This document shows positions 10,535-61,842 of a stretch of DNA of 64,000 nucleotides, piece by piece. Under the pieces are notes generated by a model. That model saw only the letters and a program-made list of their open reading frames with translations, searched no databases and was not told where the DNA came from. The DNA comes from Candidatus Nanoarchaeia archaeon (GTDB lineage Archaea > Nanobdellota > Nanobdellia > Woesearchaeales > GW2011-AR4). Each line of letters begins with the position of its first letter. The first letter of the stretch is position 1. A program made the translations under genes and the position numbers. Location: the NCBI GenBank assembly GCA_035293285.1, contig DATDOM010000046.1, forward strand, positions 5,982 through 69,981. Reading direction: 5' to 3'.

Positions 10535-10692
10535 GGGGCAGTTACGCCTCGCCATTTCGCTCGGCATACATCGTTTCTCAATCCAGCACATTCGCCACAT
10601 TTCGGGCGAAAATTTTTCCGTGGGAACTTTAGGTTCCACTTGATTCCGTCGTTAACTCGCGGAAGGGTTATCAGTGTTCATCCACGTCGTTA
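10535..10692 (+). repeat. composite GC-rich hairpin module (A-type fragment + inverted B module + TCAGTGTTCATCCAC box)
   Basis: 10565-10612 aligns with 42785-42835. 10614-10680 is the reverse complement of 43066-43120, with a compensated hairpin (gtgggaac/gttccac versus gtgaggc/gcctcac). Confidence 0.6.
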
Positions 10693-10778
10693 GTTATTGC
10701 AATAAATCGAGGCAAATTTTAGTGCCAGTCAAAAATTTGCCGAGTGTAAATATGGTCGCTCAAAGTGACCTATTGAAA
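10693..10778 (+). repeat. two-hairpin repeat, short form (copy E1)
   Basis: TTATTGCAATAA palindrome, CGAGG, H1 ggcaaatttt/aaaatttgcc (loop agtgccagtc), CCGAGTG, H2 ggtcgc/gtgacc. Confidence 0.75.
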
Positions 10779-10971
10779 TAGAGTTGATTTTTGGGTAAAA
10801 TAGGTATTTATACTTACTAAATCTCACCAGATATTGTAAAAATTTCAAGAATAATCCGCATAGTTGCACCATAGTGGTAGCCAAGCAAAAGATTTATTAG
10901 TTTACACCTGACATTATAAAAGCCGGTGATTCAGAGTAAAAAAGTTTGTATACGTCCAAAGAAGTGATTAA

Positions 10972-11073
10972 ATGAAACCAAAATCAGTAAAAGCAGTTTA
11001 TAAGGCATTAAACGAATTAGGGTTTGAATTTGCGAGGCAAAAAGACAACGATTTCGAAGAAAATATAAGTTAG
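10972..11073 (+). pseudogene. hicA remnant (first ~23 codons conserved, then divergent, premature stop)
   Basis: MKPKSVKAVYKALNELGFEFARQK then DNDFEENIS*. DNA is about 85% identical by eye to 9431-9500. Confidence 0.6.
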
Positions 11074-12380: not shown

Positions 12381-12423
12381 TTTACAGAAAGAGACTATTA
12401 TATTCTTAAATGTTCTTAAAAAA

Positions 12424-12630
12424 GGACGGCATTGAAAAGCTCTCACTTCGTTCGGTCTGCCATCAGCTCGCACTTTTCTGTTATTCCTTTAAGGGAAAAA
12501 TTCGGGGACTTGCGAGTGAGCTCGTTAGCGAACTCGCTCACAGGTCACGGCAATTTCCTTTTCGCATAAACCAATTCTAAAAAGGTACTCGCAAATTGAC
12601 GGCAGCCTTCAACTTTTCAATGCCGTTTAA
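12424..12630 (+). repeat. GC-rich long-hairpin module closed by a 16-nt inverted repeat
   Basis: ggacggcattgaaaag (12425-12440) pairs with cttttcaatgccgt (12614-12629). Internal helices include gcgagt/actcgc and gtgagc/gctcac. Confidence 0.5.
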
Positions 12631-12659
12631 AAAAGCACTCAGTGTTCATCCACTCGTCA

Positions 12660-12742
12660 ATTATTGCAATAAATCGAGGCAAATTTTAGTGTAAATCAAA
12701 ATTTGCCGAGCGAAACCATTGTCGTAAAACGACCGATTAAAA
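12660..12742 (+). repeat. two-hairpin repeat, short form (copy E2)
   Basis: TCAGTGTTCATCCAC box upstream; TTATTGCAATAA; H1 ggcaaatttt/aaaatttgcc (loop agtgtaaatc); H2 gtcg/cgac. Confidence 0.75.
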
Positions 12743-12771
12743 TAATAAGTAAGAAATCAAAAATCTAATTC

Positions 12772-15975: not shown

Positions 15976-17859
15976 ATGGAGCAATCAAATGTGGAGAACA
16001 GCATTCTTGACAGAGTAAATTCTCCAAGGGATTTAAAGAATTTAAGCATTGAACAGCTCAAAATCCTTTCAAAAGACATCAGGGAGAAGATTTTGGAGGT
16101 TGTTTCTAAAAACGGCGGCCATTTAGGAGGCCCTCTTGGCGCTGTTGAGCTTACTCTTGCAACCCATTATGTTTTTGATTCGCCAACTGACAAGATTGTG
16201 ATTGACACAGGCCACCAAAGCTACCCTCACAAGCTCATTACTGGAAGAAAAGGCCGCTTCCACACTTTAAGGCAGTATCAGGGAATCTGCGGATTCTGCA
16301 ATATTTTTGAGTCGGAATATGACGCTTTTGGCGCAGGCCACGCATCAACTGCAATTTCTGCAGCGCTTGGAATGGCAAAAGCGCGCGATTACAAAAAAGA
16401 AAGTAACAAAGTCGTGGCAATTATTGGCGACGGCGCAATGACTGCTGGGCTAGCATATGAGGCATTAAACAATGCAGGGTACCTTAAGTCAGACATTCTT
16501 GTAATATTAAACGACAACCGGATGAGCATTTCGCCAAACGTAGGCGCACTTTCAAATTACTTAAACAGGATTGTGCTAAAGCAGGGATACTTCAAGCTAA
16601 GAAAAGGCACAAAGGAAATCTTAAGCATGATTCCCGGCATTGGTGAAGAAGAGCTTGAAAAAATATTCAAGGCGCAGGAAAAATTAAGGGTTTTGTCAAG
16701 CGAAGGCAATTTCTTTGAAAGCCTCGGATTCCAGTACTTTGGCCCGATTGACGGCCACAATCTTGAAGAGCTGATTTCTGCACTAAAAAATGTAAAAGAC
16801 CTAAAAGGCCCTATTCTTTTGCACGTCAAGACTGAAAAAGGAAAAGGCTACTCGCTTGCGGAAACTGACCTTGACAAGTTCCACGGAATGTCCCCGTTTG
16901 ACCCAATCAACGGCCAGAAATATGTGACAACTACAAAAATGGCATATACCGATGCATTTGCAAATGCGCTAATCAGGATTGCAAAAGATGATGAAAAAAT
17001 AATTGCAATAACTGCCGCAATGAAATCTGGAACTGGACTTCACAAGTTTGAAAAGCACTTTCCGGAAAGGACAATTGATGTCGGAATTGCAGAGCAGCAC
17101 GCTGCAACTTTTGCCGCAGGCCTTGCAATAAACGGCATGAAGCCGGTCTGCGCAATTTATTCAACATTTCTCCAAAGGTCTTTTGACATGATAATCCACG
17201 ACATCTGCCTTCAAAAGCTTCCGGTGATTTTTGCACTCGACAGGGCGGGGCTAGTCGGCGATGACGGGCCAACACACAACGGCCCTTTTGATGTTGCATA
17301 CTTAAGGATAATCCCAAACATGACTGTGATGGTTCCAAAAGATGAAAATGAGCTTCAGCACATGCTCTACACAGCAACATTGCACAACGGCCCCTCATCA
17401 TTAAGATTCCCAAGAGGTAATGCAATAGGAGTCGGCCTAAGTCCTGATTTAAAAAAACTTGAAATCGGAAAAGGAGAAATCATCAGAAAAGGAAAAGATG
17501 TCCTGATTATAGGGATAGGCCCGATTTTATATGATGCTATAAATGCAGTTGAAGAGCTTAAGTGCGATGCTACAATAATAAACGCAAGGTTTGCAAAGCC
17601 CCTTGATGAAAGCCTGATTTTGGAATATGCAAAAGATTTTGATACTATAATAACACTTGAAGAATCTTCAGTCAAAGGCGGATTTGGCTCGGCAATACTT
17701 GAGCTTTTGAACGAAAAAGGCATGAACAAAAAAATCAGGATGATTGGAATTCCTGATACATTCATCGAGCACGGCAAGCAGGACATCCAGAAAAAGATTG
17801 CAGGGATCGACAAGGACAGCATCAAGAAAGTTATAAGCGAAGTAATAAATAAAAAATAG
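15976..17859 (+). CDS. dxs: 1-deoxy-D-xylulose-5-phosphate synthase
   Basis: 627 aa; GGHLGGPLGAVELTLATHYVFD, DTGHQSYPHKLITGR, IGDGAMTAGLAYEALNNAG. Confidence 0.95.
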   Translation: MEQSNVENSILDRVNSPRDLKNLSIEQLKILSKDIREKILEVVSKNGGHLGGPLGAVELTLATHYVFDSPTDKIVIDTGHQSYPHKLITGRKGRFHTLRQYQGICGFCNIFESEYDAFGAGHASTAISAALGMAKARDYKKESNKVVAIIGDGAMTAGLAYEALNNAGYLKSDILVILNDNRMSISPNVGALSNYLNRIVLKQGYFKLRKGTKEILSMIPGIGEEELEKIFKAQEKLRVLSSEGNFFESLGFQYFGPIDGHNLEELISALKNVKDLKGPILLHVKTEKGKGYSLAETDLDKFHGMSPFDPINGQKYVTTTKMAYTDAFANALIRIAKDDEKIIAITAAMKSGTGLHKFEKHFPERTIDVGIAEQHAATFAAGLAINGMKPVCAIYSTFLQRSFDMIIHDICLQKLPVIFALDRAGLVGDDGPTHNGPFDVAYLRIIPNMTVMVPKDENELQHMLYTATLHNGPSSLRFPRGNAIGVGLSPDLKKLEIGKGEIIRKGKDVLIIGIGPILYDAINAVEELKCDATIINARFAKPLDESLILEYAKDFDTIITLEESSVKGGFGSAILELLNEKGMNKKIRMIGIPDTFIEHGKQDIQKKIAGIDKDSIKKVISEVINKK

Positions 17860-17954
17860 ACATTGCATTCACAGCAATTGCTAAAAATAAAATCGGGCTT
17901 CGCCACTAGTTACTCGCGCCCGCATTGGCGCGAAATGCATTAAACGTAAATTCA

Positions 17955-18171
17955 CTGAATGTTCCGAGGCAAATTTTAGTGCCAGTCAAAATTTGCCGAG
18001 CGAAATTATTGAAAATTCAAAGAATTTTCCGGTTTAATTTCATCTATCATTGAAAAATAACATTTAAACTGCGGCAATAACGGAAAACATTAAACTAAAC
18101 TCATTAAACCTTTCACAATAATTATTAGAAAAATAAAATTTAAAAAATAAATAAAAATTACAACAAATAAA
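17955..18171 (+). repeat. two-hairpin repeat, long form (copy E3) with AT-rich promoter-like tail
   Basis: CCGAGG, H1 17968-17997, H2 gaaaattc/gaattttc 18011-18029, GGCAATAAC 18073-18081, AACATTAAAC boxes, TTTAAAAAATAA about 25 nt before the ispG ATG. Confidence 0.75.
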
Positions 18172-19248
18172 ATGCTCGAATACAAATCACCGCAAATTCA
18201 AAGAAGAAAATCAAGGAAAGTAAAAGTCGGAAAGATTTTCATAGGAGGCGATGCGCCGATTCCAATCCAGTCGATGACTACAACTGACACAACAGATGCA
18301 AAAGCAACGATTAAGCAGATTCAGGAGCTTGAAGAAGTAGGCTGCGAAATAATCAGGGTTTCTGCGCCTACAATGGAGGCGGCAAAGGCATTAAAGGAAA
18401 TAAGGGCAAACATCAATATTCCTCTTGTTGTGGACATTCATTTTGACTACAGGATTGCGCTTGAAGCAGTAAAATATGTCGACAAAGTCAGGATTAATCC
18501 AGGCAACATCGGAAACCCCGACAAGGTCCAGCAGGTTGTGAATGCGTGCAAGGAATACAAAGTTCCTATAAGGATTGGTGTAAATCTCGGCTCGCTTGAG
18601 CGCGATTTGTTTGAAAAATATGGATATTCTCCGGATGCAATGGTTGAATCGGCGATGCGCCACGTAAAGATTCTTGAAGACCTTGATTTTTATGACACAA
18701 TAGTTTCGTTAAAGGCATCAGACGTTCCAAGGATGGTTTTGGCATACAAATTATTTGCAGAAAAAACAGATTACCCATTGCATCTTGGCGTAACAGAAGC
18801 AGGCTCAAAATTGCCAGGCGCAATAAAATCATCAATGGGTATGGGAATGCTCCTCTCACAGGGAATCGGCGACACAATAAGAGTTTCATTGAGTGAGGAC
18901 CCAAAAGAGGAAGTAAAAGTCGGAAAAAACATTTTAAGGTCGCTTGGATTAAGAAATGACGGCGTGCAGATAACAAGCTGCCCGACCTGCGCAAGGACCC
19001 AGATTGATGTAATAAAGCTTGTTGAAAAAATAGAAAATGCAACTGACAAAATCAAGAAGCCTATTCACGTTGCAATAATGGGATGTGCTGTCAACGGTCC
19101 TGGCGAGTCAAAAAAAGCCGATATAGGGATTGTAGGCGCGCCCGGAAATCACTTGCTTTACAGGGAAGGGAAGATTGTCAAAAGAATTAATGACAATGAG
19201 ATTGAGCAGGTTCTTCTGAATGAGATTAACGAGATTGCAAATAAATAA
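18172..19248 (+). CDS. ispG: 4-hydroxy-3-methylbut-2-enyl diphosphate synthase
   Basis: 358 aa; IQSMTTTDT, SCPTCARTQIDV, MGCAVNGPGES. Confidence 0.95.
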   Translation: MLEYKSPQIQRRKSRKVKVGKIFIGGDAPIPIQSMTTTDTTDAKATIKQIQELEEVGCEIIRVSAPTMEAAKALKEIRANINIPLVVDIHFDYRIALEAVKYVDKVRINPGNIGNPDKVQQVVNACKEYKVPIRIGVNLGSLERDLFEKYGYSPDAMVESAMRHVKILEDLDFYDTIVSLKASDVPRMVLAYKLFAEKTDYPLHLGVTEAGSKLPGAIKSSMGMGMLLSQGIGDTIRVSLSEDPKEEVKVGKNILRSLGLRNDGVQITSCPTCARTQIDVIKLVEKIENATDKIKKPIHVAIMGCAVNGPGESKKADIGIVGAPGNHLLYREGKIVKRINDNEIEQVLLNEINEIANK

Positions 19249-19251
19249 AAT

Positions 19252-19413
19252 ATGAAAAAGCAATATAAAACTATAAGTATTAATAGATATTTTATAATAG
19301 TATTAATCGTAGTGCTTATTGTTGGATTCAAATTTGGTTGGGTTATTGGTATAATGTTTGCAGCTATTCTGGGATTTTTATACAAAATAATTGAGAATTC
19401 AAATAAAAAATAA
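19252..19413 (+). CDS. possible small membrane protein (53 aa)
   Basis: Own translation: MKKQYKTISINRYFIIVLIVVLIVGFKFGWVIGIMFAAILGFLYKIIENSNKK. Starts 3 nt after the ispG stop. Confidence 0.25.
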   Translation: MKKQYKTISINRYFIIVLIVVLIVGFKFGWVIGIMFAAILGFLYKIIENSNKK

Positions 19414-19415
19414 AC

Positions 19416-19727
19416 CTAATTCCTCACGACAACTTTCTTCTTTTTATTCAACGGCTCAATAACCAAAGTATCGAATAAGTCAACAATTTTTTTAACGAAT
19501 GGATTTGCAACATTTAATTTGTACAATTTTGCATTGCCAATGTTTCTTGTGTTTTTTACAATTCCAAGTTCCACAAAATCATCCCAAAGCCTAAATAAAG
19601 TTGTTCTGCCTATGCCTGAGCCTTCTGCTATGTCTGAAATTGAGTAGTCAATCTCTCTCCCTTCTATTAAAAATTCCAGCACCTTGATTTTGGGAGTGTT
19701 AATAAATTTTGTAAAAGCTGTTGCCAT
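19416..19727 (-). CDS. winged-helix transcriptional regulator
   Basis: YSISDIAEGSGIGRTTLFRLWDDFVELGIVKNTRNIGNAKLYKLN; divergent from the methyltransferase-dxr pair. Confidence 0.6.
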   Translation of the reverse strand: MATAFTKFINTPKIKVLEFLIEGREIDYSISDIAEGSGIGRTTLFRLWDDFVELGIVKNTRNIGNAKLYKLNVANPFVKKIVDLFDTLVIEPLNKKKKVVVRN

Positions 19728-19814
19728 ATTAATGACTAAACGAGTAATATTTATATAACTTTGTTAATACTGTTATAAATAAATAACAACTGTATTTTTA
19801 TAAAAACAATAAAA

Positions 19815-20492
19815 ATGAATAAAGTAAATATCTGGGATGAATTAAGCATGCAGTTCGACGGCTATAGGAAAAATCTATTTTACGGCGTTGCAGATAACAT
19901 GTACACTGCATATCCCATAATTCTTGATTATATAAAAAAGAACAAAAAAGGCGTTTCAAAAAAAGTGCTGGAATACGGCTGCGGGACAGGAACATTTTGC
20001 AGAAAGCTTCCCTCATCGGGGTTTGAACCCATAGGAATAGACATCTCGCCAAAAATGATTTCTATTGCAAAAAAACACAATAAAAGTATTCATTTTTTTG
20101 TGGGTGATTCAAAAAAAGCTGTAAAACTTTCTGGAAAAAGAGAGAAATTTGGGTTTGTAGTTGCAATAATGGTTTTTCAGTTTATTGAAGATATAAGAAG
20201 CTGCATTGAGGATTTGTCAAATTGCCTTGAAAAAAATGGCCATATTATTTTTGCTGTGCACAATCCAAAAAAGATGAGGGAAAGAAAAATAACAAATAAA
20301 CTAAAGCTTGAAGACAAGGAAGTTGACATTTATATCAGGAGTTCAAAAGATTATGATAAAATGTTCAATTCTCTTGGATTTAGCAAAAAACTTGAAAAGT
20401 ACCCGAAAACAAGCGAGGAGTTCCTTAAAAAATACACTCAGAAAGATTCTTTAAGAATATCAAAATACATGATTTTGGCTTACAAAAAATGA
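19815..20492 (+). CDS. class I SAM-dependent methyltransferase
   Basis: VLEYGCGTGTFCRKL motif I; its stop overlaps the dxr start (ATGA). Confidence 0.7.
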   Translation: MNKVNIWDELSMQFDGYRKNLFYGVADNMYTAYPIILDYIKKNKKGVSKKVLEYGCGTGTFCRKLPSSGFEPIGIDISPKMISIAKKHNKSIHFFVGDSKKAVKLSGKREKFGFVVAIMVFQFIEDIRSCIEDLSNCLEKNGHIIFAVHNPKKMRERKITNKLKLEDKEVDIYIRSSKDYDKMFNSLGFSKKLEKYPKTSEEFLKKYTQKDSLRISKYMILAYKK

Positions 20493-21655
20493 AACGAATC
20501 TCAATTTTAGGCTCGACAGGCTCAATAGGGACACAGTCCCTTGATGTAATAAGAAAATACCCTGAAAAGTTCAAAGTTGTAGGGCTGACTGCAGGAAATA
20601 ATTCTGAATTATTGATTAAGCAGATAAAGGAATTTAAGCCAAAAGCAGTTGCAATAATGGACAAAAGCAAGGTTGCAGATTTGCTCAATTTCTCCTCATG
20701 CCAGGTTTTTTCAGGAACAGAAGGGCTTAACAAAATTGCGTCATTAAGCGAAGCAGACACTGTGATTAATTCTCTTGTCGGCTCGTCAGGAGTAGAGCCC
20801 ACTTACAGTGCAATAAAAGCCAAGAAAAATATTGCTTTGGCAAACAAGGAAACTTTGGTTGCTGCAGGCTCGGTAATAATGGAAGAGGCAGAAAAAAACA
20901 ATGTAACGGTAATGCCGATTGATTCTGAACACAGCGCAATATTCCAGTGCCTTAACGGCGAAAACAAGAAAGAAGTTGAAAAAATTATAATAACATGCTC
21001 AGGCGGCCCTTTTAAGAATTTTTCAGGTGAAGAGCTAAAAAATGTTACTGCAAAAGATGCATTAAAGCATCCCACCTGGAATATGGGCGCAAAAATAACA
21101 ATTGATTCGTCCACTTTGATGAACAAAGGATTTGAAGTGATTGAAGCCCACTGGCTTTATGGAACAAATTATGACAAAATTGAAGTTGTAATTCATCCGC
21201 AAAGCATAATACACTCGCTTGTAGAGTTCAGGGACAAGTCAGTAATTGCCCAGCTTGGAATTCCGGACATGAGAATACCAATACAATACGCCCTCTCTTA
21301 TCCAGAAAGGCTTGAAAGCAGTTCTGAATCCCTGAGCCTTTCAAAAATAAAATCGCTCGAATTCAAGGAGCCTGATTTTGAAAAATTTCCTTGCCTAAAA
21401 TATGCGTTTGAAGCAGGAAAAACAGGGGGAACAATGCCTTGCGTTATGAATGCAGCAAATGAAATTGCGGTTCACGCTTTCCTAAATGATAAAATCAGCT
21501 ATCTTGACATTGCAATTATAATAAAAAAAATGATGGATGACCATAACCTGATAAAAAATCCAAATTTGCAGGAGATTCTTGAAGTGGACAGAAAAGTGAA
21601 GGAAGAAACAAAAAAAGTAATTGAAAATGGGGAATTTAATCGTCAAAAAAGTTAA
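20489..21655 (+). CDS. dxr: 1-deoxy-D-xylulose-5-phosphate reductoisomerase
   Basis: ILGSTGSIGTQSLDV, LANKETLV, IDSEHSAIFQCL, HPTWNMGAKITIDSSTLMNKG. Confidence 0.95.
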   Translation: MKRISILGSTGSIGTQSLDVIRKYPEKFKVVGLTAGNNSELLIKQIKEFKPKAVAIMDKSKVADLLNFSSCQVFSGTEGLNKIASLSEADTVINSLVGSSGVEPTYSAIKAKKNIALANKETLVAAGSVIMEEAEKNNVTVMPIDSEHSAIFQCLNGENKKEVEKIIITCSGGPFKNFSGEELKNVTAKDALKHPTWNMGAKITIDSSTLMNKGFEVIEAHWLYGTNYDKIEVVIHPQSIIHSLVEFRDKSVIAQLGIPDMRIPIQYALSYPERLESSSESLSLSKIKSLEFKEPDFEKFPCLKYAFEAGKTGGTMPCVMNAANEIAVHAFLNDKISYLDIAIIIKKMMDDHNLIKNPNLQEILEVDRKVKEETKKVIENGEFNRQKS

Positions 21656-21878
21656 TGCAATGTTCCGAGGCAAAATTTTATTGGCAGGAAAAATTTTACC
21701 GAGCGAAACTATTGAAAATTCGAAGAATTTTCCGGTTTTAAACCGATGTGGATTAAAAATAAACTACAGCAATAACGAACGAACATTAATTAATAGCATT
21801 AAACCGACGGCATTGAGATTTTACAATAAGGAAATTTAAAAAATAAAAGACGGAAGAAATGATAAACTAAACCAAAAA
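21651..21878 (+). repeat. two-hairpin repeat, long form (copy E4)
   Basis: Begins at the dxr stop codon (gTTAATGCAATG). H1 21669-21700 (ggcaaaatttt/aaaattttacc), H2 21714-21732, GCAATAAC 21769-21776, GAAATTTAAAAAA upstream of ispDF. Confidence 0.75.
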
Positions 21879-23048
21879 ATGAATTACGCAATCATCGTCG
21901 CAGCAGGAAGCGGCAAAAGGATGGGGAAAAAAGAAAATAAAGTATTTCTTTCATTACAGGACAAACCCATAATTTACCACACAATAAAAAAATTCCAGAA
22001 TTGTAAAATAATAGATGAAATTATAGTAGTCACGAGAAAAGAAGACAAAAAAAAAATAGAGGAAATAAAAAAAAGATTCAGTTTTAAAAAAATCAGTTCA
22101 ATTGTTGAAGGCGGGAAAGAAAGGCAGGATTCTGTTTACAATGGCTTAATGTCGATCAAAAGCGCAAAAGAAGACAACATAATTCTGGTGCATAACGGCT
22201 GCAATCCTTTGGTCAGGGAATCTGAAATTGTTTCCTGCATAAAAGCAGCAGAAGAAAACGGCGCGGCAATTGTCGGATTTCCATTAAAAGACACAATAAA
22301 AAAGGCAAAAAATGAATTTGTTCAGTCTACTTTAAACAGGGAAAATATTTTCCAGGTCCAGACGCCGCAGTGTGTAAGATACGGCCTGTTTCTAAATGCA
22401 TTTAAAAACTTAAAAGCCAAAAAGCTCAAAGTAACCGACGATTCTTCAATGGTTGAAGCGCTTGGCAAAAAAGTCAAAATCGTGCCCTGCTCATATGAAA
22501 ACATCAAGATAACCGCAAAAGAGGATCTGGAAATTGCACATGGAATATTGAATAAAAGCAAATCAAGTGTGTTCAGGACAGGAATGGGGCAGGACAGCCA
22601 CAGGTTTTCAAAAGACAAAAATAAAAAACTTGTTTTGGGCGGTTTTACAATTGATGAAACCGGATTTGATGCAAATTCTGACGGGGATGTAATTCTCCAC
22701 GCACTGTTTAATGCAGTAAGTTCCACAATTGGCGAGCGCTCGCTTGGCTTTTACGCTGATGAAATGTGCAAAAAAGGAATTACTGACAGCAAAGAATATC
22801 TTAAAGTGATTTTGGAAAAAATGAGAAATTCCGGATTTGAATTAAATAATGTAAGCATTGCAATTGAAGCCTCAAAGCCAAGGCTTGAAAAGCACACAAA
22901 AAGCATAAAGGACTCGTTGTCAAAAATATTAAGCCTTGAAAAATCCAAAATAGGAATAAGTTATACTTCAGGCGAAGGCCTTACTGATTTTGGAAAAGGG
23001 CTTGGGATGCAGTGCCTTGCTTATGTAAGCCTTGATGAGTCATCTTAA
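21879..23048 (+). CDS. ispDF: bifunctional IspD/IspF (MEP cytidylyltransferase / MEcPP synthase)
   Basis: N-terminal IIVAAGSGKRMG; C-terminal half RTGMGQDSHRF...GDVILHAL. Confidence 0.95.
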   Translation: MNYAIIVAAGSGKRMGKKENKVFLSLQDKPIIYHTIKKFQNCKIIDEIIVVTRKEDKKKIEEIKKRFSFKKISSIVEGGKERQDSVYNGLMSIKSAKEDNIILVHNGCNPLVRESEIVSCIKAAEENGAAIVGFPLKDTIKKAKNEFVQSTLNRENIFQVQTPQCVRYGLFLNAFKNLKAKKLKVTDDSSMVEALGKKVKIVPCSYENIKITAKEDLEIAHGILNKSKSSVFRTGMGQDSHRFSKDKNKKLVLGGFTIDETGFDANSDGDVILHALFNAVSSTIGERSLGFYADEMCKKGITDSKEYLKVILEKMRNSGFELNNVSIAIEASKPRLEKHTKSIKDSLSKILSLEKSKIGISYTSGEGLTDFGKGLGMQCLAYVSLDESS

Positions 23049-23117
23049 TCCTTTTAAAAACATATAAATGCCTTAAAATCAGCAATATTAATATACCTTC
23101 TGTTATACTCATTCGCT

Positions 23118-23966
23118 ATGGCCATACCATCAAATGCAAAGATAAACCTGTTCTTAAAGATAGGAAAGAGGCAGAAATCAGGCTACCATAACATACAGTC
23201 AGTCATGCAGAAAATTGAACTAAGCGACAACATCACGATAGAACCTCTTACCGAAGACAAGATAGTGATTGAATGCACAAATGCTGACCTTGAAAATGAA
23301 GAGAACCTTGCCTATAAGGCAGCTTCGCTGCTTAAAAAGAAATTCAGGGTAAAGCACGGGGTAAGAATCCACATCGAGAAAAACATCCCTTTTGAGGCAG
23401 GCCTTGGCGGAGGCTCAAGCAATGCAGCAACAGTTCTTTCAAACCTGAACAAGCTCTGGACTTTAAGGCTTAGCGAAAAGCAGCTGATGAACCTCGCTGC
23501 CCAGATAGGCTCAGATGTCCCATTTCTTATAGGGGACGCTCCTGCGCTTGTCGAGGGAATAGGTGACAAGATAAAAAAAATAAACAAGTCTTTTAGCGTC
23601 AACGTCGTTTTGATAAACCCCGGCTTTAGGGTATCAACAAAATGGGCTTATGCAACCTATGACAAAATGAAGCCAAAAATCAAGACAGATGCCAACATCA
23701 AGGAACTAATCAAGGCAATGGAAAGAAAGGACATATCAAAAATTGCTGACAATGTGCATAATGATTTTGATTCAGTCATCACAAAAAAATACAAAGTCCT
23801 CGAGCAGATTAAGACAAACCTTGTCAGAAATGACGCGCTCTCTGCCTCAATTTCAGGCTCAGGCCCCACAGTATTTGGAATTTTTAAGAGCATTTACGAG
23901 GCACGCGAAGCTTTTTTCAAAATCCAGTACGATTATCCTTTCGTTTTCCTGACAAAAACTATATAA
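23118..23966 (+). CDS. ispE: 4-diphosphocytidyl-2-C-methyl-D-erythritol kinase
   Basis: KINLFLKIGKR..., PFEAGLGGGSSNAATVL (GHMP kinase motif). Confidence 0.9.
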   Translation: MAIPSNAKINLFLKIGKRQKSGYHNIQSVMQKIELSDNITIEPLTEDKIVIECTNADLENEENLAYKAASLLKKKFRVKHGVRIHIEKNIPFEAGLGGGSSNAATVLSNLNKLWTLRLSEKQLMNLAAQIGSDVPFLIGDAPALVEGIGDKIKKINKSFSVNVVLINPGFRVSTKWAYATYDKMKPKIKTDANIKELIKAMERKDISKIADNVHNDFDSVITKKYKVLEQIKTNLVRNDALSASISGSGPTVFGIFKSIYEAREAFFKIQYDYPFVFLTKTI

Positions 23967-24018
23967 TTAAGGGCAGAATAACCTGATTCTTAAGCAGTTA
24001 ATAGGGCGCACAGTAAGT

Positions 24019-24211
24019 GTCAATGCCATAAATCGAGGCGAAAATTAGTGCTATTCAATTTTCGCCGAGTGAAAATATTGAAAATTCGCAGAATTTTCCA
24101 GTTGAACGTCATTATGCATTAAAACAATAATAACTAACGACGGCAATAACTGACAACATTAAACTAATAACATTGAAAATTTCACGACAATAAACTAAAT
24201 CACAATAAAAA
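24019..24211 (+). repeat. two-hairpin repeat, long form (copy E5)
   Basis: H1 24037-24066 with compensated stem ggcgaaaatt/aattttcgcc, H2 24080-24098, GGCAATAAC 24142-24150, AACATTAAAC boxes. Confidence 0.75.
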
Positions 24212-25165
24212 GTGAAAAATGAGGAAAAACCAAATAACAAAATGCCAATTATAAAGGTAGCAAAGCACGCAGGATTCTGCTTCGGGGTAAAAAAGGCAAT
24301 TGAGATAGCTGAAGAGGTTGCATCGAAAAACTCAGGGCCGACATATGTCCTTGGCCAGCTTGTTCATAACGAGCGCGTTATAAAGAACCTCGAAGACAAG
24401 GGAATTGTTTTTGTGGACGGGATAAATAAAATACCGCAGAATGCTGTGACTGTCCTAAGGGCGCACGGCGAGCCGGGAACTACTTATGTCTCGCTTGGGC
24501 AAAAGTCAATAGAAAAAGGAAAAAACCTCAATGACGCAACCTGCCCCCTTGTCACTCTTGTTCACAATGTGGCAATCAAGCTAAAGAACTCAGGGTATGA
24601 AGTAATAATTTTCGGAAAGCACGACCATCCTGAGTCAATAGGCACGAGCTTCCATCTCAAAGGAAAGGACACCTTCATTGTAGAGCACCAAGATGATTAT
24701 CAGATAGTGGTTGACTACATCAATAAAAACAATTTTGAAAAAGTTGTAATAATTTCGCAGACAACAATGTCTGTTTATGGTTACAAAGACCTTATCGATA
24801 AAATAAACTCAAAAATACGGAATGCTTTTGTCGAGATTCCGTTAAACCTGCGCGACCTGTCGATAAAGCACGGCTATGTCGACACAATCTGCAACCCGAC
24901 AAAGCAGCGCCAGTCTGACACTGAAGAGATTGCAAAAGAATCCGATGTCGTCATTGTGATTGGCGGGTTAAATTCAAGCAACTCAAAAGAGCTTTACCAT
25001 AAATGCGAGGAGCTCGGAGTCAGGTCTTACTTCATCCAGTCAGCAGAGCAATTGAAAAAAGAGTGGTTTGATTCAATGGAAAAGATAGGAGTGACAGCGG
25101 GCGCATCAACTCCGGATTACCTGATTGATGAAGTTGTTGATAGGATTAAGGAACTTGTTTTTTAG
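24212..25165 (+). CDS. ispH: 4-hydroxy-3-methylbut-2-enyl diphosphate reductase
   Basis: AKHAGFCFGVKKAIE, ...VLGQLVHN.... The track start is GTG; the in-frame ATG at 24242 (MPIIKVAKHAGFCFG) is the more likely start. Confidence 0.9.
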   Translation: MKNEEKPNNKMPIIKVAKHAGFCFGVKKAIEIAEEVASKNSGPTYVLGQLVHNERVIKNLEDKGIVFVDGINKIPQNAVTVLRAHGEPGTTYVSLGQKSIEKGKNLNDATCPLVTLVHNVAIKLKNSGYEVIIFGKHDHPESIGTSFHLKGKDTFIVEHQDDYQIVVDYINKNNFEKVVIISQTTMSVYGYKDLIDKINSKIRNAFVEIPLNLRDLSIKHGYVDTICNPTKQRQSDTEEIAKESDVVIVIGGLNSSNSKELYHKCEELGVRSYFIQSAEQLKKEWFDSMEKIGVTAGASTPDYLIDEVVDRIKELVF

Positions 25166-25656: not shown

Positions 25657-25965
25657 TTTATTCCTCCGATTTATGTTTTAGTTTTTATTTTGATATATTC
25701 TTAGTTTTTATTTTTTTAGTTTTTTATATTTTATTATTTCGTCCTTCGTTTTTTTTAAATTTCGTTATTGTAAAACCTTAATGCCGTAAGTTTAATGTTA
25801 ATCGTTATTGTTCGTCCGTCAATGCCAGTTCGTCATTGTCGTTGTTATTTATTGTAGTTTTAATGTTTAATGACTTTCAATCGGAAAATTCTTCGAATTT
25901 TCAATATTTTCACTCGGCGAATTTTGACTTACACTAAAATTCGCCTCGATTTATTGCATTAACTC
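25657..25965 (-). repeat. two-hairpin repeat, long form (copy E6, inverted)
   Basis: Read on the minus strand: GTTAATGCAATAAATCGAGG, H1 ggcgaatttt/aaaattcgcc (25916-25945), H2 gaaaattc/gaattttc. The tail carries CATTAAAC boxes and GAAATTTAAAAAAA and leads to the rps15 start. Confidence 0.75.
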
Positions 25966-26098
25966 TAGCGTATTTTATTTCTCTGGAGAAATTGTATTTT
26001 CATCCAGTATAGCCAAGCCGTAACCGAGCTACCTTTACCTATAGGATGAATTGATGGTTTATAAAGGTTATTGTTGAGTTTTTGTATAAAGCTTAGAA

Positions 26099-33439: not shown

Positions 33440-33588
33440 TGCGGAGGACAGGATTCGAACCTGCGTAAGCACTAAGCTAATAGGTGTCTTCTAGTCATTG
33501 CATTGCTGCTCGTAACACCAATCAATGCTGGCCTAAGCTTGGACGGAAATATTTCCTCTATCCCGTTTGGCCACTCCGGCACCTCCGC
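33440..33588 (-). tRNA. class II tRNA, proposed tRNA-Leu (UAG) with two intervening sequences
   Basis: Minus-strand read: GCGGAGG-TG-CCG..CGG-G-ATAG[19 nt]G-CTTAGG[46 nt]A-CCTAT-TAGCTTAGTGCTTAC-GCAGG-TTCGAAT-CCTGT-CCTCCGC-A. The acceptor, D and T arms are unambiguous. The anticodon-arm parse is my inference. Confidence 0.65.
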
Positions 33589-34126
33589 ATTTGAGTTTTA
33601 GATAGATTCTTCCAAGCTTTTCTTTATTCTGCAAAGGGAAAGTGCTTAAAAATTTATCTATTTGATTCTTATTAATCCTTATGCCATAAAATTCTTTTTT
33701 GTATTTTTTGTTAATCCAGGATTCTTTTGAGTGAGTTATGTTAAATTCCGTTAGTAAATTGCTTACACCATCACAAAGTCTTTTGCTAGCTGTTGTGAAG
33801 CCTAAAGTATTTGATCTAAAACCTCCATCTGTGTCAAAATATCCTGCTAAGAAGTGCTTCTTTATCTCTTGTGATGATTTTTCAATTGAAGTTGGTACAA
33901 AAACCCTATTACTTTTTGCACCTTTTGGTATTTCCATTCGTTCATTAAAAAATTTGAATAATTCTTTATTTCTTATCCTTAAGTATAAGCGAGGTATCCT
34001 GTTTCCTCTTTTGAGAGGTTCCTTAGGGTTAGTTCTAGTGAATATAAGAGTTTTAATAAGTTCAGAAAGGTAATTTAAGTACAACCTGTCAGACATATCA
34101 ATAGTTATTGCATAGTCTTTTGACAA
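33533..34126 (-). CDS. LAGLIDADG homing endonuclease (frame stays open upstream to 34261)
   Basis: Second motif HFLAGYFDTDGGF lies inside the track ORF. First motif AYLSGVIIGDGN lies in frame upstream of the TTG start. The C-terminal 19 codons overlap the tRNA 5' half. Confidence 0.8.
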   Translation of the reverse strand: MSKDYAITIDMSDRLYLNYLSELIKTLIFTRTNPKEPLKRGNRIPRLYLRIRNKELFKFFNERMEIPKGAKSNRVFVPTSIEKSSQEIKKHFLAGYFDTDGGFRSNTLGFTTASKRLCDGVSNLLTEFNITHSKESWINKKYKKEFYGIRINKNQIDKFLSTFPLQNKEKLGRIYLKLKCGGAGVAKRDRGNISVQA

Positions 34127-38482: not shown

Positions 38483-39256
38483 ATGAAGTTTAATCTAAGT
38501 AAAATGCCACTATATTTCATCGGTCTTGGATTAAGCAACGAAAAAGACATCACAGTCAATGGTCTTGAAGCTGTAAAAAAATGTGATATTGTCTATCTAG
38601 AATACTACACTTCCGTTTTAAACACAACAAAGGAAAAACTCGAAGAATTCTACGGAAAAAAAATAATTCTGGCGCCAAGGCAAAAAGTAGAGTCTGATAA
38701 TAATGAAATTATAGACAACGCAAAAACAAAAAATGTTGCTTTTTTGGTTGCAGGAGACGCAATGGCAGCAACAACCCACATTGATTTAATGCTAAGGGCA
38801 AAAAAAGAAAAAATCAGGTGCCATGTTATCCATAATGCCTCAATTATAAATGCAGTAGGAATTACTGGACTCCAGTTATACAAATTCGGAAAAACAACAA
38901 GCATTCCGATGGAAAACGAGAATGTTGAAAGCCCATATGATGCGCTAAAAGACAACTTAAGCCTTGGAATGCACACATTATTCCTGCTTGACTTAAAGCC
39001 CGATGAAAACAAGTTCATGACAATAAATGACGCAATAAGGTATTTACTCAAAGTTGAGCTTAAAAGAAATAATAAAATATTTACAGAAAAAACTTTGTGT
39101 ATTGGCCTTGCAAGGGTTGGAAGTGAAAGCCAGTTGATTAAGGCAGGAACTGCAAAGGAGCTTGTAAAACATGATTTCGGAAAGCCTGTTCATTGCCTCA
39201 TAGTTCCTGGCAAAATGCACTTTATGGAAGAGGAAGCATTGAAGATTTACAGCTAA
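38483..39256 (+). CDS. dph5: diphthine synthase
   Basis: MPLYFIGLGLSNEKDITVNGLEAVKKCDIVYLEYYTS...FLVAGDAMAATTHIDL; the second ATG at 38504 may be the true start. Confidence 0.9.
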   Translation: MKFNLSKMPLYFIGLGLSNEKDITVNGLEAVKKCDIVYLEYYTSVLNTTKEKLEEFYGKKIILAPRQKVESDNNEIIDNAKTKNVAFLVAGDAMAATTHIDLMLRAKKEKIRCHVIHNASIINAVGITGLQLYKFGKTTSIPMENENVESPYDALKDNLSLGMHTLFLLDLKPDENKFMTINDAIRYLLKVELKRNNKIFTEKTLCIGLARVGSESQLIKAGTAKELVKHDFGKPVHCLIVPGKMHFMEEEALKIYS

Positions 39257-39293
39257 AACGTAATAATGCCGTATTTATTCATCTCGTTTCTAA

Positions 39294-39381
39294 AATATTG
39301 CAATATTCCGAGGCAAAATTTAGTGGCAGTCAAATTTTGCCGAGTGTATCTAAAGTTGTCTCAAAGGCAACGGATTTAAGG
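39294..39381 (+). repeat. two-hairpin repeat, short form (copy E7)
   Basis: AATATTGCAATATT perfect palindrome, CCGAGG, H1 ggcaaaattt/aaattttgcc (39312-39341), H2 gttgt/gcaac. Confidence 0.75.
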
Positions 39382-39388
39382 TAATACC

Positions 39389-39555
39389 GGGACCCGTCCT
39401 AAATCTCGCTCCGCTCGGGTTATTGCCAAGCTTGGCTCCTTCATCTCAAATCGCAGGCTGACATTGCCCGGATGGCGCGTCCCCTTTGTCAGCTTTTCAT
39501 CCGTACAAATCATGGCCTCGCAAAAAGGCAATAACCTGCATTTAGGACGGGGCCC
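39389..39555 (-). ncRNA. structured RNA candidate, C-type (small paralog of 42984-43267)
   Basis: Minus-strand read: P1 gggccccgtcctaaat/atttaggacgggtccc, P2 ggttattgcc/ggcaataacc, gctgaca/tgtcagc helix. It shares the tttttgcgaggcc, cgatttgagatgaa and aataacccgagcg blocks with the larger copy. Confidence 0.6.
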
Positions 39556-39570
39556 AAATATCAACTGGTT

Positions 39571-40221
39571 TTAAGAGCTGCAAAGTTTATACAATAAGTC
39601 AAATGATTTCTGGAGCTTGTCTTCCTCAATAATCAATATGTGCTCGTTCGAGGAAATAAGCGCGTCAATTATGCTTATCCCGTTCTCTGCAAGCTCGTTG
39701 TATATTATTGAAAATACACCTGGTGTTTTCTTTAGTATTCTTGGGTAATTGATTTCAATCATCCCAACTTTTTTGTTTTCCTCAAGTATCAGTTCCTTTG
39801 GGAATGATGATTTGACTTTGTCAAGGTTTTTCTGGTCTATGACTATAGTAAGCGCTTCCGAGCCTTCAAGCACCCTTATTATGTCATGGTCCTGAAAATC
39901 AAGCATCCGGTCAGGCCTGCCAAGCTTGGTTTTTACAGAATCAGTCCTCTTCAATAATAAAGAAGACATTTTGGTCTTGATTGATATTCGAGCCTGCTTT
40001 AGTATTGCGTGTACTGAATTTGACTCCTCACTTTTTTTGATGCTGGTTTTGTATCTTCTTAATGCGCTTATTACTGAATCAGGGCTTGCATCAAGCTTTT
40101 GGGTCTGGATAATATATTTTGCAAGGCTCCTTATGTTTATTATTCCTCTTGAAATGTCTTTTTTGAGCGCAATGTCAGTATCAACAAATTTCCAGACAAA
40201 TTCTGCGATATTTTTTGCCAT
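39571..40221 (-). CDS. ACT-domain regulatory protein (COG2150-like)
   Basis: C-terminal GVFSIIYNELAENGISIIDALISSNEHILIIEEDKL is ACT-like. Confidence 0.45.
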   Translation of the reverse strand: MAKNIAEFVWKFVDTDIALKKDISRGIINIRSLAKYIIQTQKLDASPDSVISALRRYKTSIKKSEESNSVHAILKQARISIKTKMSSLLLKRTDSVKTKLGRPDRMLDFQDHDIIRVLEGSEALTIVIDQKNLDKVKSSFPKELILEENKKVGMIEINYPRILKKTPGVFSIIYNELAENGISIIDALISSNEHILIIEEDKLQKSFDLLYKLCSS

Positions 40222-42743: not shown

Positions 42744-42955
42744 AAAAAAGACGCTGAATTATATTTAGGCCGCACCATTAGTGCGGCGTACATTGCTCAT
42801 CCAATCCGCACAATTCGCCCCATTTGGGCGAAAATCGTTTGTTTTTATTTTTACAAACAAATTCAAGGAGTCACCTTCGCAATGCAACGAATCAACCGTA
42901 TTATGTACGCGGCCTAATGCAGGCCGCCTATCTTTGCGGAGCGGATTTAAAATTA
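42744..42955 (+). repeat. A-type hairpin module ending in a TATA-like box
   Basis: Collinear with 61645-61842: AAAAAAGACG, covarying hairpins (ccgcac/gtgcgg vs cagccgc/gcggctg; gcggcc/ggccgc vs gcgcgcc/ggcgcgc), conserved ttcgccc/gggcgaa hairpin, ...TTCGCGGAGCRG-TTTAAAA. Confidence 0.6.
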
Positions 42956-42983
42956 GTAAAAGAAACCTTAAAAAATAATTTCC

Positions 42984-43267
42984 GGCTCTGTCCGGAATAT
43001 GGTTATTGCCTTTTTGCGAGGCCGTGATTTTCCGGCTGAATAGCTGACAAAGGGGATACTCCACAACCCTTCCGCGAGTTGACGGCGGAATCAAGTGAGG
43101 CCTAAAGCCTCACGAAAAACAAGAATATTCGAGGGCTTGAGCGAAGCGAAACCCTAAATGCGTGTCAACTGAGCGTAACCAGTTGCGGGAAATGTCAGCC
43201 CACGATTTGAGATGAATGAGCCGAGCTTGCCAATAACCCGAGCGAATGCGAGATTCCGGACAGAGCC
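42984..43267 (+). ncRNA. structured RNA candidate, C-type (large paralog, ~130-nt internal extension)
   Basis: P1 ggctctgtccggaat (42984-42998)/attccggacagagcc (43253-43267), 15 bp perfect. P2 ggttattg/caataacc, gctgaca/tgtcagc. The extension at 43057-43187 has agttgac/gtcaact and gtgaggc/gcctcac helices. Confidence 0.6.
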
Positions 43268-43413
43268 ATAATTTCCGTAACCTTTATAAATAAACCAGCC
43301 ATCCCAGATAAGATAACAAGCCCGAGTTCGAGAGAGCGCTTTAGGGTTTAACGAAAGTTAAATTTCGCTATTTCTCTCGCGGTAATACTTAAAAACAAGA
43401 GTCAAATTAAAAA

Positions 43414-45709: not shown

Positions 45710-45746
45710 GCCCACGGAGTTAGGACCATTATGCCTCCTGCGTTTT

Positions 45747-49307: not shown

Positions 49308-49351
49308 AATTATATTGAATTAGGATAGGTAGTACCAGTTCAAACCTAAGA

Positions 49352-49540
49352 AATCATTGCAATATTTCGAGGCAAATTTTAGTGCTAATCAAAATTTGCC
49401 AAGTGAAATTCTTGAAAATTCGGAGAATTTTCCGTTTAAATTGCAAAAATACAAAACAGGCAATAAAAAACGGCAATAACGAGTAACATTGAATTAGTCC
49501 AATTAAACTTTGAAATAAAAAAGCCAGAAATTAAAAATAA
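49352..49540 (+). repeat. two-hairpin repeat, long form (copy E8)
   Basis: TCATTGCAATATTTCGAGG, H1 49371-49400, GCCAAG variant, H2 49414-49432, GGCAATAAC 49472-49480, AACATTGAAT / AATTAAAC boxes. Confidence 0.75.
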
Positions 49541-59467: not shown

Positions 59468-59486
59468 AGGTGTTACTAGTTTAAAT

Positions 59487-59572
59487 TAATGTAATAAACT
59501 GAGGCAAAATTTTAATGGCAGAAGAAATTTTGCCGAGTGTAATTATGGTCGCCCAAAGCGACGGATTGAAGT
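59487..59572 (+). repeat. two-hairpin repeat, short form (copy E9)
   Basis: TTAATGTAATAAACTGAGG, H1 ggcaaaattt/aaattttgcc (59503-59534), H2 ggtcgc/gcgac. Confidence 0.7.
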
Positions 59573-59657
59573 AAAAAATAAAAGTAAGAACCTCTAAAAT
59601 ATTAAGTAGAGGACGTGCCCAAAAATGAACAAATTGAGACTATTGCAAGTTAACCCT

Positions 59658-59893
59658 TATTCTTCCTCAACTCTGTGACCCAAAGACACCGAAGTTCAAG
59701 ATTACCGCTGCTTCCTTCCAGACCTGACGGATTTTCAAGAGCTTTAGCCCCTTGAGGCAGAGTCTCAACGTCGGAATAAGGCTGGCAACAATCACAATTG
59801 CCGCTTTTTGAGCTTCACCGCGCCTAAAGCACATCTGCGCTGACAGGAGAGTGCTGACCTCCCGGCAAAGTCCTCCGTAGGTTAGGAAGATAA
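59658..59893 (-). ncRNA. ffs: signal recognition particle RNA (7S/SRP RNA)
   Basis: Minus-strand read contains GTCAGGTCTGGAAGGAAGCAGC (59707-59728), the universal helix-8 motif. The ends pair: tcttcctaac/gttgaggaaga. Confidence 0.8.
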
Positions 59894-59930: not shown

Positions 59931-60133
59931 TGAGTGAAACCAGAAGGATTCACACACGGGTTTTCTTTGTGAAAACCCTACTCACAAAGGTAAAATCCAC
60001 ACTGCGCATGGAGTTTCCCTCTGCATTCGGTGTTCATCCACTTTACGTAAAGTTATTGAAATATTCGAGGCAAATTTTAGTGCCATTCAAAATTTGCCGA
60101 GTGTAAATATTGTTGTCAAACAACCGATTTAAG
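59931..60133 (+). repeat. GC-rich hairpin module + two-hairpin repeat, short form (copy E10)
   Basis: gggttttc/gaaaaccc hairpin, TCGGTGTTCATCCAC box, GTTATTGAAATATTCGAGG, H1 60069-60098, H2 gttg/caac. Confidence 0.7.
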
Positions 60134-60170
60134 TAAAAAAATTAATTAGAATTCTATAATCAAAAACAAA

Positions 60171-61644: not shown

Positions 61645-61842
61645 TAAAAAAGACGAAGGATGTTAGGCAGCCGCCAATAACTGCGGCTGCATTCATTGAA
61701 CACAAAATTCGCACATTCGCCCCATTTTGGGCGAAAGTTGATAAAAAGTACCAAGTAAACAATTGAAACCCGCATTGCGGCGGGTTGTAAGATAAATGCG
61801 CGCCATTGTGGCGCGCCTAACATTCGCGGAGCAGGTTTAAAA
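61645..61842 (+). repeat. A-type hairpin module ending in a TATA-like box ~28 nt upstream of the tRNA-like gene
   Basis: Collinear with 42744-42955; gttaggc/gcctaac long-range pair; ends CGCGGAGCAGGTTTAAAAAAACC. Confidence 0.6.

Follow-up and report, generated by a model that had tools for sequence, protein, structure and literature searches.

We analysed a stretch of 64,000 nucleotides from a Candidatus Nanoarchaeia archaeon (GenBank assembly GCA_035293285.1, contig DATDOM010000046.1; hereafter the window), and in it a convergent intergenic gap between a TP_methylase/diphthine-synthase gene (dph5) on the plus strand, with its stop at 39256, and an opposing open reading frame (ORF) of 216 amino acids on the minus strand, with its stop at 39571. 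An earlier note, made from the letters alone, had named these neighbours; both stops were borne out, while the label of an ACT protein for the opposing ORF is weak, since its PF13840 match (E=0.03) lies under the Pfam cut-off. As the note had described, the whole gap (262 bp) is taken up by a repeat unit on the plus strand, E7, followed four bases on by a GC-rich element, C1, whose RNA sense is on the minus strand; the 14-nt perfect palindrome, the hairpins H1 and H2 and the 16-bp and 10-bp helices all lie where it had put them. With a probability of about 0.72, the gap contains a single copy from each of two distinct multi-copy families of intergenic repeats in a Woesearchaeota (DPANN) genome, the C family being a MITE (a miniature transposable element with inverted repeats) and the E family being akin to repetitive extragenic palindromic (REP) sequences. 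The parts of the two elements are these:

39291–39384, plus strand: E7, whole unit, short form (covariance model R1, 94.4 bits, E=1e-20).
39294–39307, plus strand: H0 of E7, a perfect 14-nt AT-rich palindrome, AATATTGCAATATT.
39308–39344, plus strand: H1 of E7, a C-G pair, tandem G.A/A.G pairs and a 10-bp stem, with the loop AGUGGCAGUC.
39355–39371, plus strand: H2 of E7, GUUGUC-UCAAA-GGCAAC.
39355–39381, plus strand: H2 of E7 together with the conserved tail GGAUUUAAGG.
39389–39555, minus strand: C1, a copy of the C-type MITE with no duplication and no adjacent promoter (covariance models R2, 187.7 bits, and R3, 161.4 bits).
39540–39555, minus strand: 5' strand of helix P1 of C1, which is the left terminal inverted repeat (GGGCCCCGUCCUAAAU).
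39389–39404, minus strand: 3' strand of P1, which is the right terminal inverted repeat.
39405–39417, minus strand: mini-hairpin P6 of C1 (CGAGCGGAGCGAG: C-G, G.A, A.G, G-C, C-G, triloop).
39418–39427, minus strand: 3' strand of P2 (GGCAAUAACC), 10 bp with its partner at 39527–39536.
39430–39436, minus strand: 3' strand of P3, GCCAAGC, with its partner GCGAGGC at 39515–39521; tandem purine-purine pairs.
39457–39493, minus strand: P4, GCUGACA/UGUCAGC, with the conserved apical AAGGGGA..CGGGCAA.

No ORF of note lies within E7 or C1, and across C1 there is only a 62-aa frame with a TTG start. At the gathering score, Rfam recognised nothing in the window except a signal recognition particle (SRP) RNA elsewhere; over E7 and C1 at E<=10 it gave only chance-level matches (E of at least 1), among them weak ones to sR32, sR38 and SNORA57, and six further loci with C or E copies gave no matches. 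Neither E7 nor C1, then, belongs to any Rfam family. The other search that the earlier note had proposed, of archaeal and metagenomic sequence, showed both elements to be multi-copy families beyond the window. For this we used 80 loci fetched via the window's protein S13, all from metagenome-assembled genomes of Woesearchaeota or Nanoarchaeia; outside the window, 20-kb S13 neighbourhoods and 13 short metagenome contigs were examined (loci and contigs are numbered with an L below). Metagenomes from groundwater and soil contain the gap sequence itself. We rejected a tRNA, with or without an intron, in the gap, ARAGORN reporting only a tRNA-Leu at 45746, and C/D box, H/ACA, RNase P, Y RNA, retron, hammerhead, integron attC and L1-mRNA mimicry were dropped because their defining boxes or context are missing.

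The C family is a small non-coding multi-copy element, patchily present at orthologous sites. C1 (167 nt, with a GC content of 0.51–0.55 against ~0.36 around it) is one of three copies in the window. The second was located by BLAST and nhmmer with the GC-rich element, and the third by models R2 and R3:

42984–43267, plus strand: C2, with a nested 119-nt insert at 43065–43183 in its apical loop (118.9 bits).
12427–12625, minus strand: C3, with a 58-nt apical insert, 28 nt from the E copy E12654 (85.9 bits).

About 15 more copies were found in related genomes and metagenomes, with lengths of 156–298 bp. In Woesearchaeota of GTDB they were found with the models (L039, L062 and L028) or through their ends (L061, L022 and L071), and one metagenome pattern scan gave nine distinct metagenome loci. 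The inserts of C2 and C3 are located at P4 and the apical region, and in the family as a whole the apical loop tolerates inserts of 58–130 nt. The first ~35 nt of the C2 insert (CAACCCTTCCGCGAGTTGACGGCGG) recur as a stand-alone sequence right after the rpoD stop (L030:12203–12260 and L022:2588–2645), and the insert also holds an E-like CGAGGG..CCC module. In four metagenomes, contig depth was 115–277 over C1 against ~8 on its unique flanks, and dozens of contigs, 85–95% identical, carried differing flanks; a depth of ~100 against ~8 was seen over the E core, so that depth over C1 and the E core is 12–35 times that of the flanks. Presence is patchy at the S13 promoter, where the window, L022, L039 and L061 have a C copy and L001, L005, L008, L009, L017, L027, L028 and L030 have none; no copy was seen at this promoter in the eight nearest relatives examined (S13 69–76% identical). 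The empty site in L001 reads AAAAAATCAGTAACCTTTTTAAAT, and the filled site in L022 reads ...GGACAGAGCC/AAAAAATCA/GTAACCTTTTTAAAT. No contig with a precise empty site for C1 or E7 was found in the four metagenomes, one contig having an unrelated 520-nt skip. In a bulk census (PMC11602168), one Woesearchaeal genome had 105 MITEs per Mb.

All complete C copies have terminal inverted repeats of 14–16 bp with 0–2 mismatches, and 13 of 14 are flanked by target-site duplications of 8–12 bp, mostly 9 bp, exact or with one mismatch. The duplicated sequence differs from copy to copy (GGTTGTTTT in L039, AACTTTTCC in L061, TGTTTTTTA in L090). C2 has exact 9-bp duplications (ATAATTTCC) at 42975–42983 and 43268–43276, and C3 has TTAAAAAAG at 12416–12424 and 12627–12635. 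A motif-blind scan of 1.08 Mb for a 14-nt inverted repeat with a 9-bp duplication gave seven matches, three of which are C copies. C is thus a MITE, and the closing helix P1 (in C1 16 bp with one C-U mismatch, 39540–39555 with 39389–39404) is its pair of terminal inverted repeats. This had escaped the earlier note, whose 'structured RNA' is transposable and multi-copy, with duplications at its other copies. The ends (GGCTCTGTCC.. and GGCTTTGTTGAAAAT) keep G1, G2 and G7 in nearly all copies, and their consensus, GGCYYYGUCC..AAU, fits GGnnnYG. A start with GG and a G (or Y-G) at positions 6–7, in the form GGnnnTG, is common to IS6/IS26 and IS1, and archaeal elements called 'IS6' have longer and looser repeats (PMC6807381). 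C ends agree with the 14-bp IS6/IS26 consensus GGTTCTGTTGCAAA, in which G1, G2 and G7 are invariant, at 9–11 of 14 positions, the repeat of L062 at 11 of 14. The length of the duplication matches IS1, which makes duplications of 8–9 bp (ISfinder tables). Given the GGnnnYG ends, a DDE transposase of an IS6/IS26-like or IS1-like type, supplied in trans, may bind the C repeats and make the 9-bp staggered cuts. A 2.1-kb candidate with inverted repeats and a duplication in L030 proved to be a chance match, an ORF running through its end, and a 17-nt pattern of the terminal repeat gave five chance matches in phage coding sequence of viral contigs, where specific C and E patterns had no matches.

The earlier note had also read the 167-nt element as a structured RNA of the minus strand, and both the fold and the strand are upheld. 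We measured covariation in a 13-sequence C model alignment with 500 shuffles and with controls in which the pairing partner was slid. In the alignment 90% of the cells pair and 29 of 39 pairs changed on both sides; none of the 500 shuffles matched this and the slid controls came nowhere near it, though the controls correct only in part for relatedness. Compensatory changes occur at 14 of 15 pairs in P1 and at 9 of 10 pairs in P2, and P4 is nearly invariant. P3 has the tandem G.A/A.G pairs in 10 of 13 copies; C1 has G.A/A.A there, and in three copies A-U pairs take their place. The mini-hairpin P6 is formed by the 13-nt 'joining' strand that runs from P2 to P1; it carries the motif C-G, G.A, A.G and is 100% paired in the 13 sequences (AU and GC in six each), and C is therefore a three-way junction. 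Model scores of true C copies are ~120–160 bits against 25–35 bits on the reverse strand, and these scores, with the G.A pairs, show the sense strand of C1 to be the minus strand; folding z-scores of the region are −2.95 on the minus strand and −4.45 on the plus strand. The fold (a three-way junction of P1–P4 with the mini-hairpin) is thus kept by compensatory changes and strand-specific G.A pairs. C may also be under selection in the form of a folded single strand, which would most likely be RNA made by read-through from neighbouring genes, and such RNA would act as a 3'-end or insulator hairpin between the upstream transcription unit and the abutting promoter.

C insertions are not random: most are placed immediately upstream of the transcription factor B recognition element (BRE) and leave the promoter intact. 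Outward from one end of most C copies come, in order, the 9-bp duplication, a BRE-like hexamer of the GTAACC/GAAACC/GTAAGC type (GnAAnC) and a TATA box (TTTATAAA or TTTTTAAA). In 8 of 17 C copies the distance from the element end to a strict TATA box is exactly 15 nt, compared with a background of 0.65% (binomial p=7e-14); with one-off and near matches (L062, which has the 12-bp duplication, L086, L091, L092, L094 and C3) the total in this phase is ~13–15 of 17. After the C2 duplication come GTAACC and the TATA box of the S13 operon promoter (43283–43292). In eight copies at promoters other than that of S13, ORFs of at least 50 aa begin 42–57 nt from the element end, ~30 nt past the TATA box, a spacing that, by typical archaeal promoter geometry, suggests leaderless or short-leader mRNAs. 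The promoters abutted by C include that of the S13-S4-S11-rpoD operon in four genomes, in both orientations and with different duplications, and that of the RNase P RNA gene in L071. In the latter (L071:1–200) the C end is 15 nt upstream of the TATA box of the archaeal RNase P RNA gene (GAGGAAAGTCCGCCC); in L091 an RNase P RNA (Rfam RF00373, 60 bits, cut by the contig end) lies 585 nt from the C copy. The copies C1 and L028 lie away from promoters.

The placement could come about if the core promoter of archaea is read by the transposition machinery, through its sequence or through its shape when bound by TATA-binding protein (TBP) and transcription factor B (TFB), with integration just upstream. 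The data fit three causes, namely recognition of sequence, recognition of the bent TBP/TFB complex, and selection, and cannot tell them apart. Our tentative proposal, which we hold at well under even odds, is that the machinery reads the bent BRE/TATA DNA under TBP and TFB and integrates one 9-bp stagger upstream, the fold being kept as an insulator or 3'-end read-through RNA. That the fixed distance instead reflects a transposase sequence preference coinciding with the BRE/TATA consensus, or the removal of other insertions by selection, is a serious possibility that falls somewhat short of an even chance. G is the first base after the duplication in ~10 cases and the hexamer is like GnAAnC, which makes a sequence-specific target plausible; the 9-mers that are duplicated consist of A/T tracts, which transposases commonly prefer; and the short intergenic spacers of DPANN genomes leave few neutral sites. 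Selection alone, however, rarely yields a precision of ±0–1 bp across unrelated promoters, and neither alternative accounts readily for the two orientations of C at the same TATA phase or for the persistence of copies such as C1 and L028 away from promoters.

It is also possible that C1 is a host-encoded small RNA gene, a new archaeal non-coding RNA acting in trans, whose inverted termini would be no more than its closing helix, with its mobility incidental or the element domesticated. P2 (9 of 10 pairs) and P6 (100% paired), which covary strongly, are helices that a DDE transposase does not need; the tandem G.A pairs and the score asymmetry are strand-specific; the unpaired stretches (GCUGACAAAGGGG..CGGGAAAUGUCAGC) are conserved across genomes with S13 only 55–60% identical; and copies of the GGCUCUGUCC type are found again and again upstream of S13, in four genomes. 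We nevertheless consider such a gene unlikely. A gene of this kind would not be expected to sit between duplications of unrelated sequence in 13 of 14 complete copies, to reach 12–35 times the depth of its flanks, to be missing at the S13 promoter of the eight nearest relatives or to tolerate inserts of 58–130 nt in its apical loop, and C copies have no consistent promoter upstream and occur in both orientations relative to the adjacent one.

Several points weigh against our reading of the gap as a MITE copy beside a REP-like copy. C1 itself has no duplication (its flanks are TTGATATTT and GGTATTACC) and no adjacent promoter, so it is probably an old copy, or one that was rearranged or had its flanks swapped by recombination between copies. 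Neither a transposase with matching ends among the 46 window ORFs scanned nor an autonomous element with C ends in 1.1 Mb of loci was found, and these loci hold no long inverted-repeat pairs. With its 9 bp (12 bp once, in L062), the duplication differs from the 8 bp of IS6/IS26. Because of this length, and as no transposase was found, we do not file C under IS6/IS26 and call it simply a MITE; an IS1-like origin of its ends remains a candidate. Four of the eight exact TATA cases are S13 promoters and perhaps not independent, and covariation within a MITE could stem from selection on single-stranded or cruciform DNA. For E, no consistent target-site duplications, terminal repeats or mobilising enzyme were found, and 'REP-like' is an analogy.

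Model R1, a covariance model built from nine E copies after repeat finding, reports ten E copies in the window, nine on the plus strand and one on the minus strand, and matches in eight further Woesearchaeota loci. The E copies do not all lie on one strand, as the tenth copy at 25871–25966 shows. The copies other than E7, all found with R1, are:

10690–10782, plus strand: short form.
12657–12746, plus strand: short form (E12654).
17947–18042, plus strand: long form, between dxs and ispG.
21648–21745, plus strand: long form, between dxr and ispDF.
24016–24111, plus strand: long form, between ispE and ispH.
25871–25966, minus strand: long form, upstream of rpS15, the sole minus-strand copy in the window.
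49350–49445, plus strand: long form.
59482–59575, plus strand: short form, beside the 3' end of the SRP RNA gene.
60049–60137, plus strand: short form.

The exact E core pattern occurs twice in the window against zero expected, and a locus identical to that of E7 is found in metagenome contig L097. In E7 the H1 arms (CCGAGGCAAAATTT/AAATTTTGCCGAG) enclose a 10-nt loop. The C-G pair and the two non-Watson-Crick G.A/A.G positions of H1 are present in 18 of 18 E copies (one copy has A.A at one position), and five H1 stem pairs covary in the 18 sequences; the sequence of H2 varies among copies with the hairpin kept, and the tail (C/G)GAUUNAA is conserved. The palindrome H0 of other E copies runs through its centre, with a loop of 0–1 nt. 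Since this makes it unfit as an RNA hairpin, H0 more likely works at the level of DNA. We also considered whether H0 pairs with the tail or with the H1-H2 linker and dropped the idea, as no covariation was seen by eye. RNAalifold gave the long form no closing helix, including none between H0 and GGCAATAAC.

Eight of the ten window copies lie 0–90 nt past the stop of a same-strand gene, and the remaining two come after a common motif, CAGTGTTCATCCAC. A motif C(A/G)GTGTTCATCCAC is found directly upstream of three short-form copies (10672–10686, 12640–12653 and 60027–60040). The five long-form copies have an extra conserved tail followed by near-identical promoters, and are placed between genes of the methylerythritol phosphate (MEP) pathway cluster and upstream of rpS15; the 8–10-nt repeats that flank two of them belong to the conserved tail motif. 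The cluster (15976–25165) is a complete MEP/deoxyxylulose phosphate (DOXP) set of bacterial type (dxs, ispG, a methyltransferase, dxr, an ispDF fusion, an ispE-like GHMP kinase and ispH), with long-form E repeats and near-identical promoters (AAATTTAAAAAATAAA) in its intergenic spaces. In L031 (twice), L030, L025 and L062, E forms head-to-head doublets with an inverted copy of a different E subtype, H0 being the centre of symmetry; the window holds singletons only. A single E lies within the S13 5' leader in L009 and L022. E copies stand on both sides of the archaeal SRP RNA (59607–59877, minus strand, Rfam RF01857, 106.8 bits), at 59482–59575 and 60049–60137. At L006:6587–6770 an E copy has its H0 ~24 nt upstream of a divergent tRNA-Leu gene; read in reverse, H0 could act as the TATA box of that gene.

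We propose with modest confidence, by analogy, that E is a REP-like family of 85–95-nt two-hairpin extragenic repeats with a fold and sequence core conserved across Woesearchaeota; it would fold in 3' untranslated regions and spread by some mechanism. Like REP sequences, their paired forms (REPINs) and enterobacterial repetitive intergenic consensus (ERIC) sequences, E is short, structured, extragenic, multi-copy and mostly downstream of co-oriented genes, forms head-to-head heterodimers in some genomes and keeps its hairpins by compensatory changes. E differs from them in being archaeal, in its length of 85–95 nt, in combining two different hairpins with an AT palindrome, in having no GTAG tag or REP-associated tyrosine transposase (RAYT) partner identified, and in a core conserved across genera. 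A stronger form of this reading, in which E is the archaeal counterpart of REP/REPIN, moved by an IS200/IS605-type (Y1/HUH) transposase in the form of single-stranded DNA hairpins, and not an element of 3' untranslated regions at the RNA level alone, is in our view doubtful. H2 often contains GCGAAGC, and this sequence forms a very stable DNA mini-hairpin. A tag, CGTC, CGTA or CGTT, is found upstream of 6 of 10 copies, 4–10 nt from H0 and not abutting the stem; the G.A pairs are strand-specific and the window strand bias is 9:1; and the doublets of two E subtypes are like bacterial REP heterodimers (PMC3733652). No Y1 transposase or RAYT was identified, however, with no whole-genome search made for Y1; REP families have so far been reported in bacteria only (PMC3733652); E is 2–3 times as long as REP, has two different hairpins and bears no target-site signature; and the strand bias also follows the orientation of the upstream gene (8 of 10). 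The same orientation and the minus-strand copy weaken the idea of a replication-linked element that E copies on one strand had suggested.

The earlier note had gone further and taken the E repeats to be miniaturised relatives of the C-type RNA, with one architecture closed by UUAUUGC/GCAAUAA, a tandem-GA helix and possibly bound L7Ae. Its observation of a C-G pair followed by tandem G.A/A.G pairs is real in both elements (H1 of E in 18/18, P3 of C in 10/13, P6 of C in 13/13), and the pairs are flanked directly by C-G on one side and by Watson-Crick pairs on the other. CGAG/CGAG is the context of the classical stable tandem-GA duplex (5'-CGAG-3'/3'-GAGC-5'), with sheared G.A pairs, and E and C have the motif in this same context. 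In E and in C1/C2 the GA helix comes after TTATTGC, GGCAATAAC recurs in the tails of long-form E, and of the window's three C copies two have an E copy within 30 nt. Kinship is nonetheless very improbable and largely refuted at the level of whole elements. In the covariance-model comparison that the note had suggested, R1 found no C copy at E<=10, and R2 and R3 found no E copy; BLAST of E against C gave only words of 9–14 nt, and the similarity is limited to the motif. The resemblance at TTATTGC/GGCAATAAC holds for one C subfamily (C1, C2, L086 and L095), to which UUAUUGC/GGCAAUAAC is confined, and fails for the rest, where P2 covaries freely (GGUUAGCAGC, GUCAGCAACA, GGCUGCCGUC and others) and UUAUUGC is not a family feature. 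Three C copies have A-U pairs in place of G.A/A.G, the long form of E has no closing helix, and C copies at other loci have no E beside them, the one exception, L097, being the locus of the window. G.A/A.G pairs are the core of the kink-turns (k-turns) bound by L7Ae; H1 of E and P3 and P6 of C differ in having no 3-nt bulge by the G.A pairs, so the motif is not a k-turn and the structure gives no basis for L7Ae binding. E and C thus share only the CGAG/CGAG tandem-GA helix module, once in E and twice in C, and their adjacency is most simply explained if both use the same few AT-rich intergenic sites.

Other features were noted in the window and its relatives. A structured 5' leader of the S13-S4-S11-rpoD operon (GCCCGAGUUC..GAGCGYUUUAGGGUU..ACGCUUUAUUCUCGG) lies at 43309–43385 and upstream of S13 in L001–L030; it was seen in every S13 locus inspected, is not in Rfam and is likely a ribosomal-protein leader. 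At L001:9790–9875, and also in L005, L009 and L027, a conserved ~85-nt sRNA-like sequence (GGGGCAUCCUGGGAGGUGAUGCAUGCUUCGGCAUG..AAUCCAGGCCUAGGC) lies a few hundred bases upstream of S13, by an intron-bearing tRNA gene, and was not seen in the window. A third repeat family, a GC-rich hairpin (TTCGCCCCATTTGGGCGAA) with neighbouring hairpins, is present at 10561–10611, 42783–42833 and 61686–61736, and its copy at 42760–42955 ends with the GGATTTAAAAT tail of E. Two HicA toxin genes (Pfam PF07927; 9431–9889 and 11081–11612) each stand beside a small opposite-strand ORF, presumably a HicB partner, and the first 80 nt of the hicA gene at 9431 recur with 83% identity at 10972–11052, upstream of the second hicA ORF. 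A free-standing LAGLIDADG-domain ORF of 197 aa (33533–34126, minus strand) has no obvious intron or intein context.

Among known systems C is most like the prokaryotic MITEs (Neisseria Correia, Coxiella QMITE2 and Sulfolobus SM; features reviewed in PMC10969869), with its length of ~165 bp, lack of an ORF, 14–16-bp repeats, short duplications, many intergenic copies, extended RNA hairpin and frequent position immediately upstream of genes. It differs from them in its branched, covariation-supported fold with strand-specific G.A pairs, which is not a simple foldback, and in its placement, precise to a single base, upstream of the archaeal BRE/TATA. The finding is thus real yet ordinary in kind, and the branched MITE fold and the base-precise position upstream of core promoters are what raise it above routine. 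Ty3 and other retroelements targeted to RNA polymerase III genes integrate with base precision at promoters bound by TBP and a TFIIB-family factor (Brf1/TFB) and leave the gene intact. By analogy C, too, has a fixed, base-precise position at promoters as a safe haven; unlike Ty3, a long terminal repeat retrotransposon that uses an integrase and inserts at the start site, C is a DNA MITE and lies upstream of BRE. We found no report of such promoter targeting in Archaea in the literature searched.

The window carries about one structured repeat per 5 kb, despite the tiny, gene-dense genomes of DPANN archaea, and seeing such repeats as mobile or repeat elements keeps them from being annotated as novel RNA genes. 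The strong covariation within a MITE bears on the open question of whether selection acts on such elements in the form of RNA, in that of single-stranded DNA, or in neither. In uncultured archaea C may allow promoters to be predicted, with a TATA box 15 nt and a start codon ~45 nt from its end. If the placement is mechanistic, C would be the first archaeal transposon described as targeting promoters, so far as our search of the literature shows, and could serve as a natural probe for the way in which the archaeal pre-initiation complex marks DNA; if it is directed by that complex, C would be the archaeal DNA-transposon counterpart of Ty3/TFIIIB targeting.

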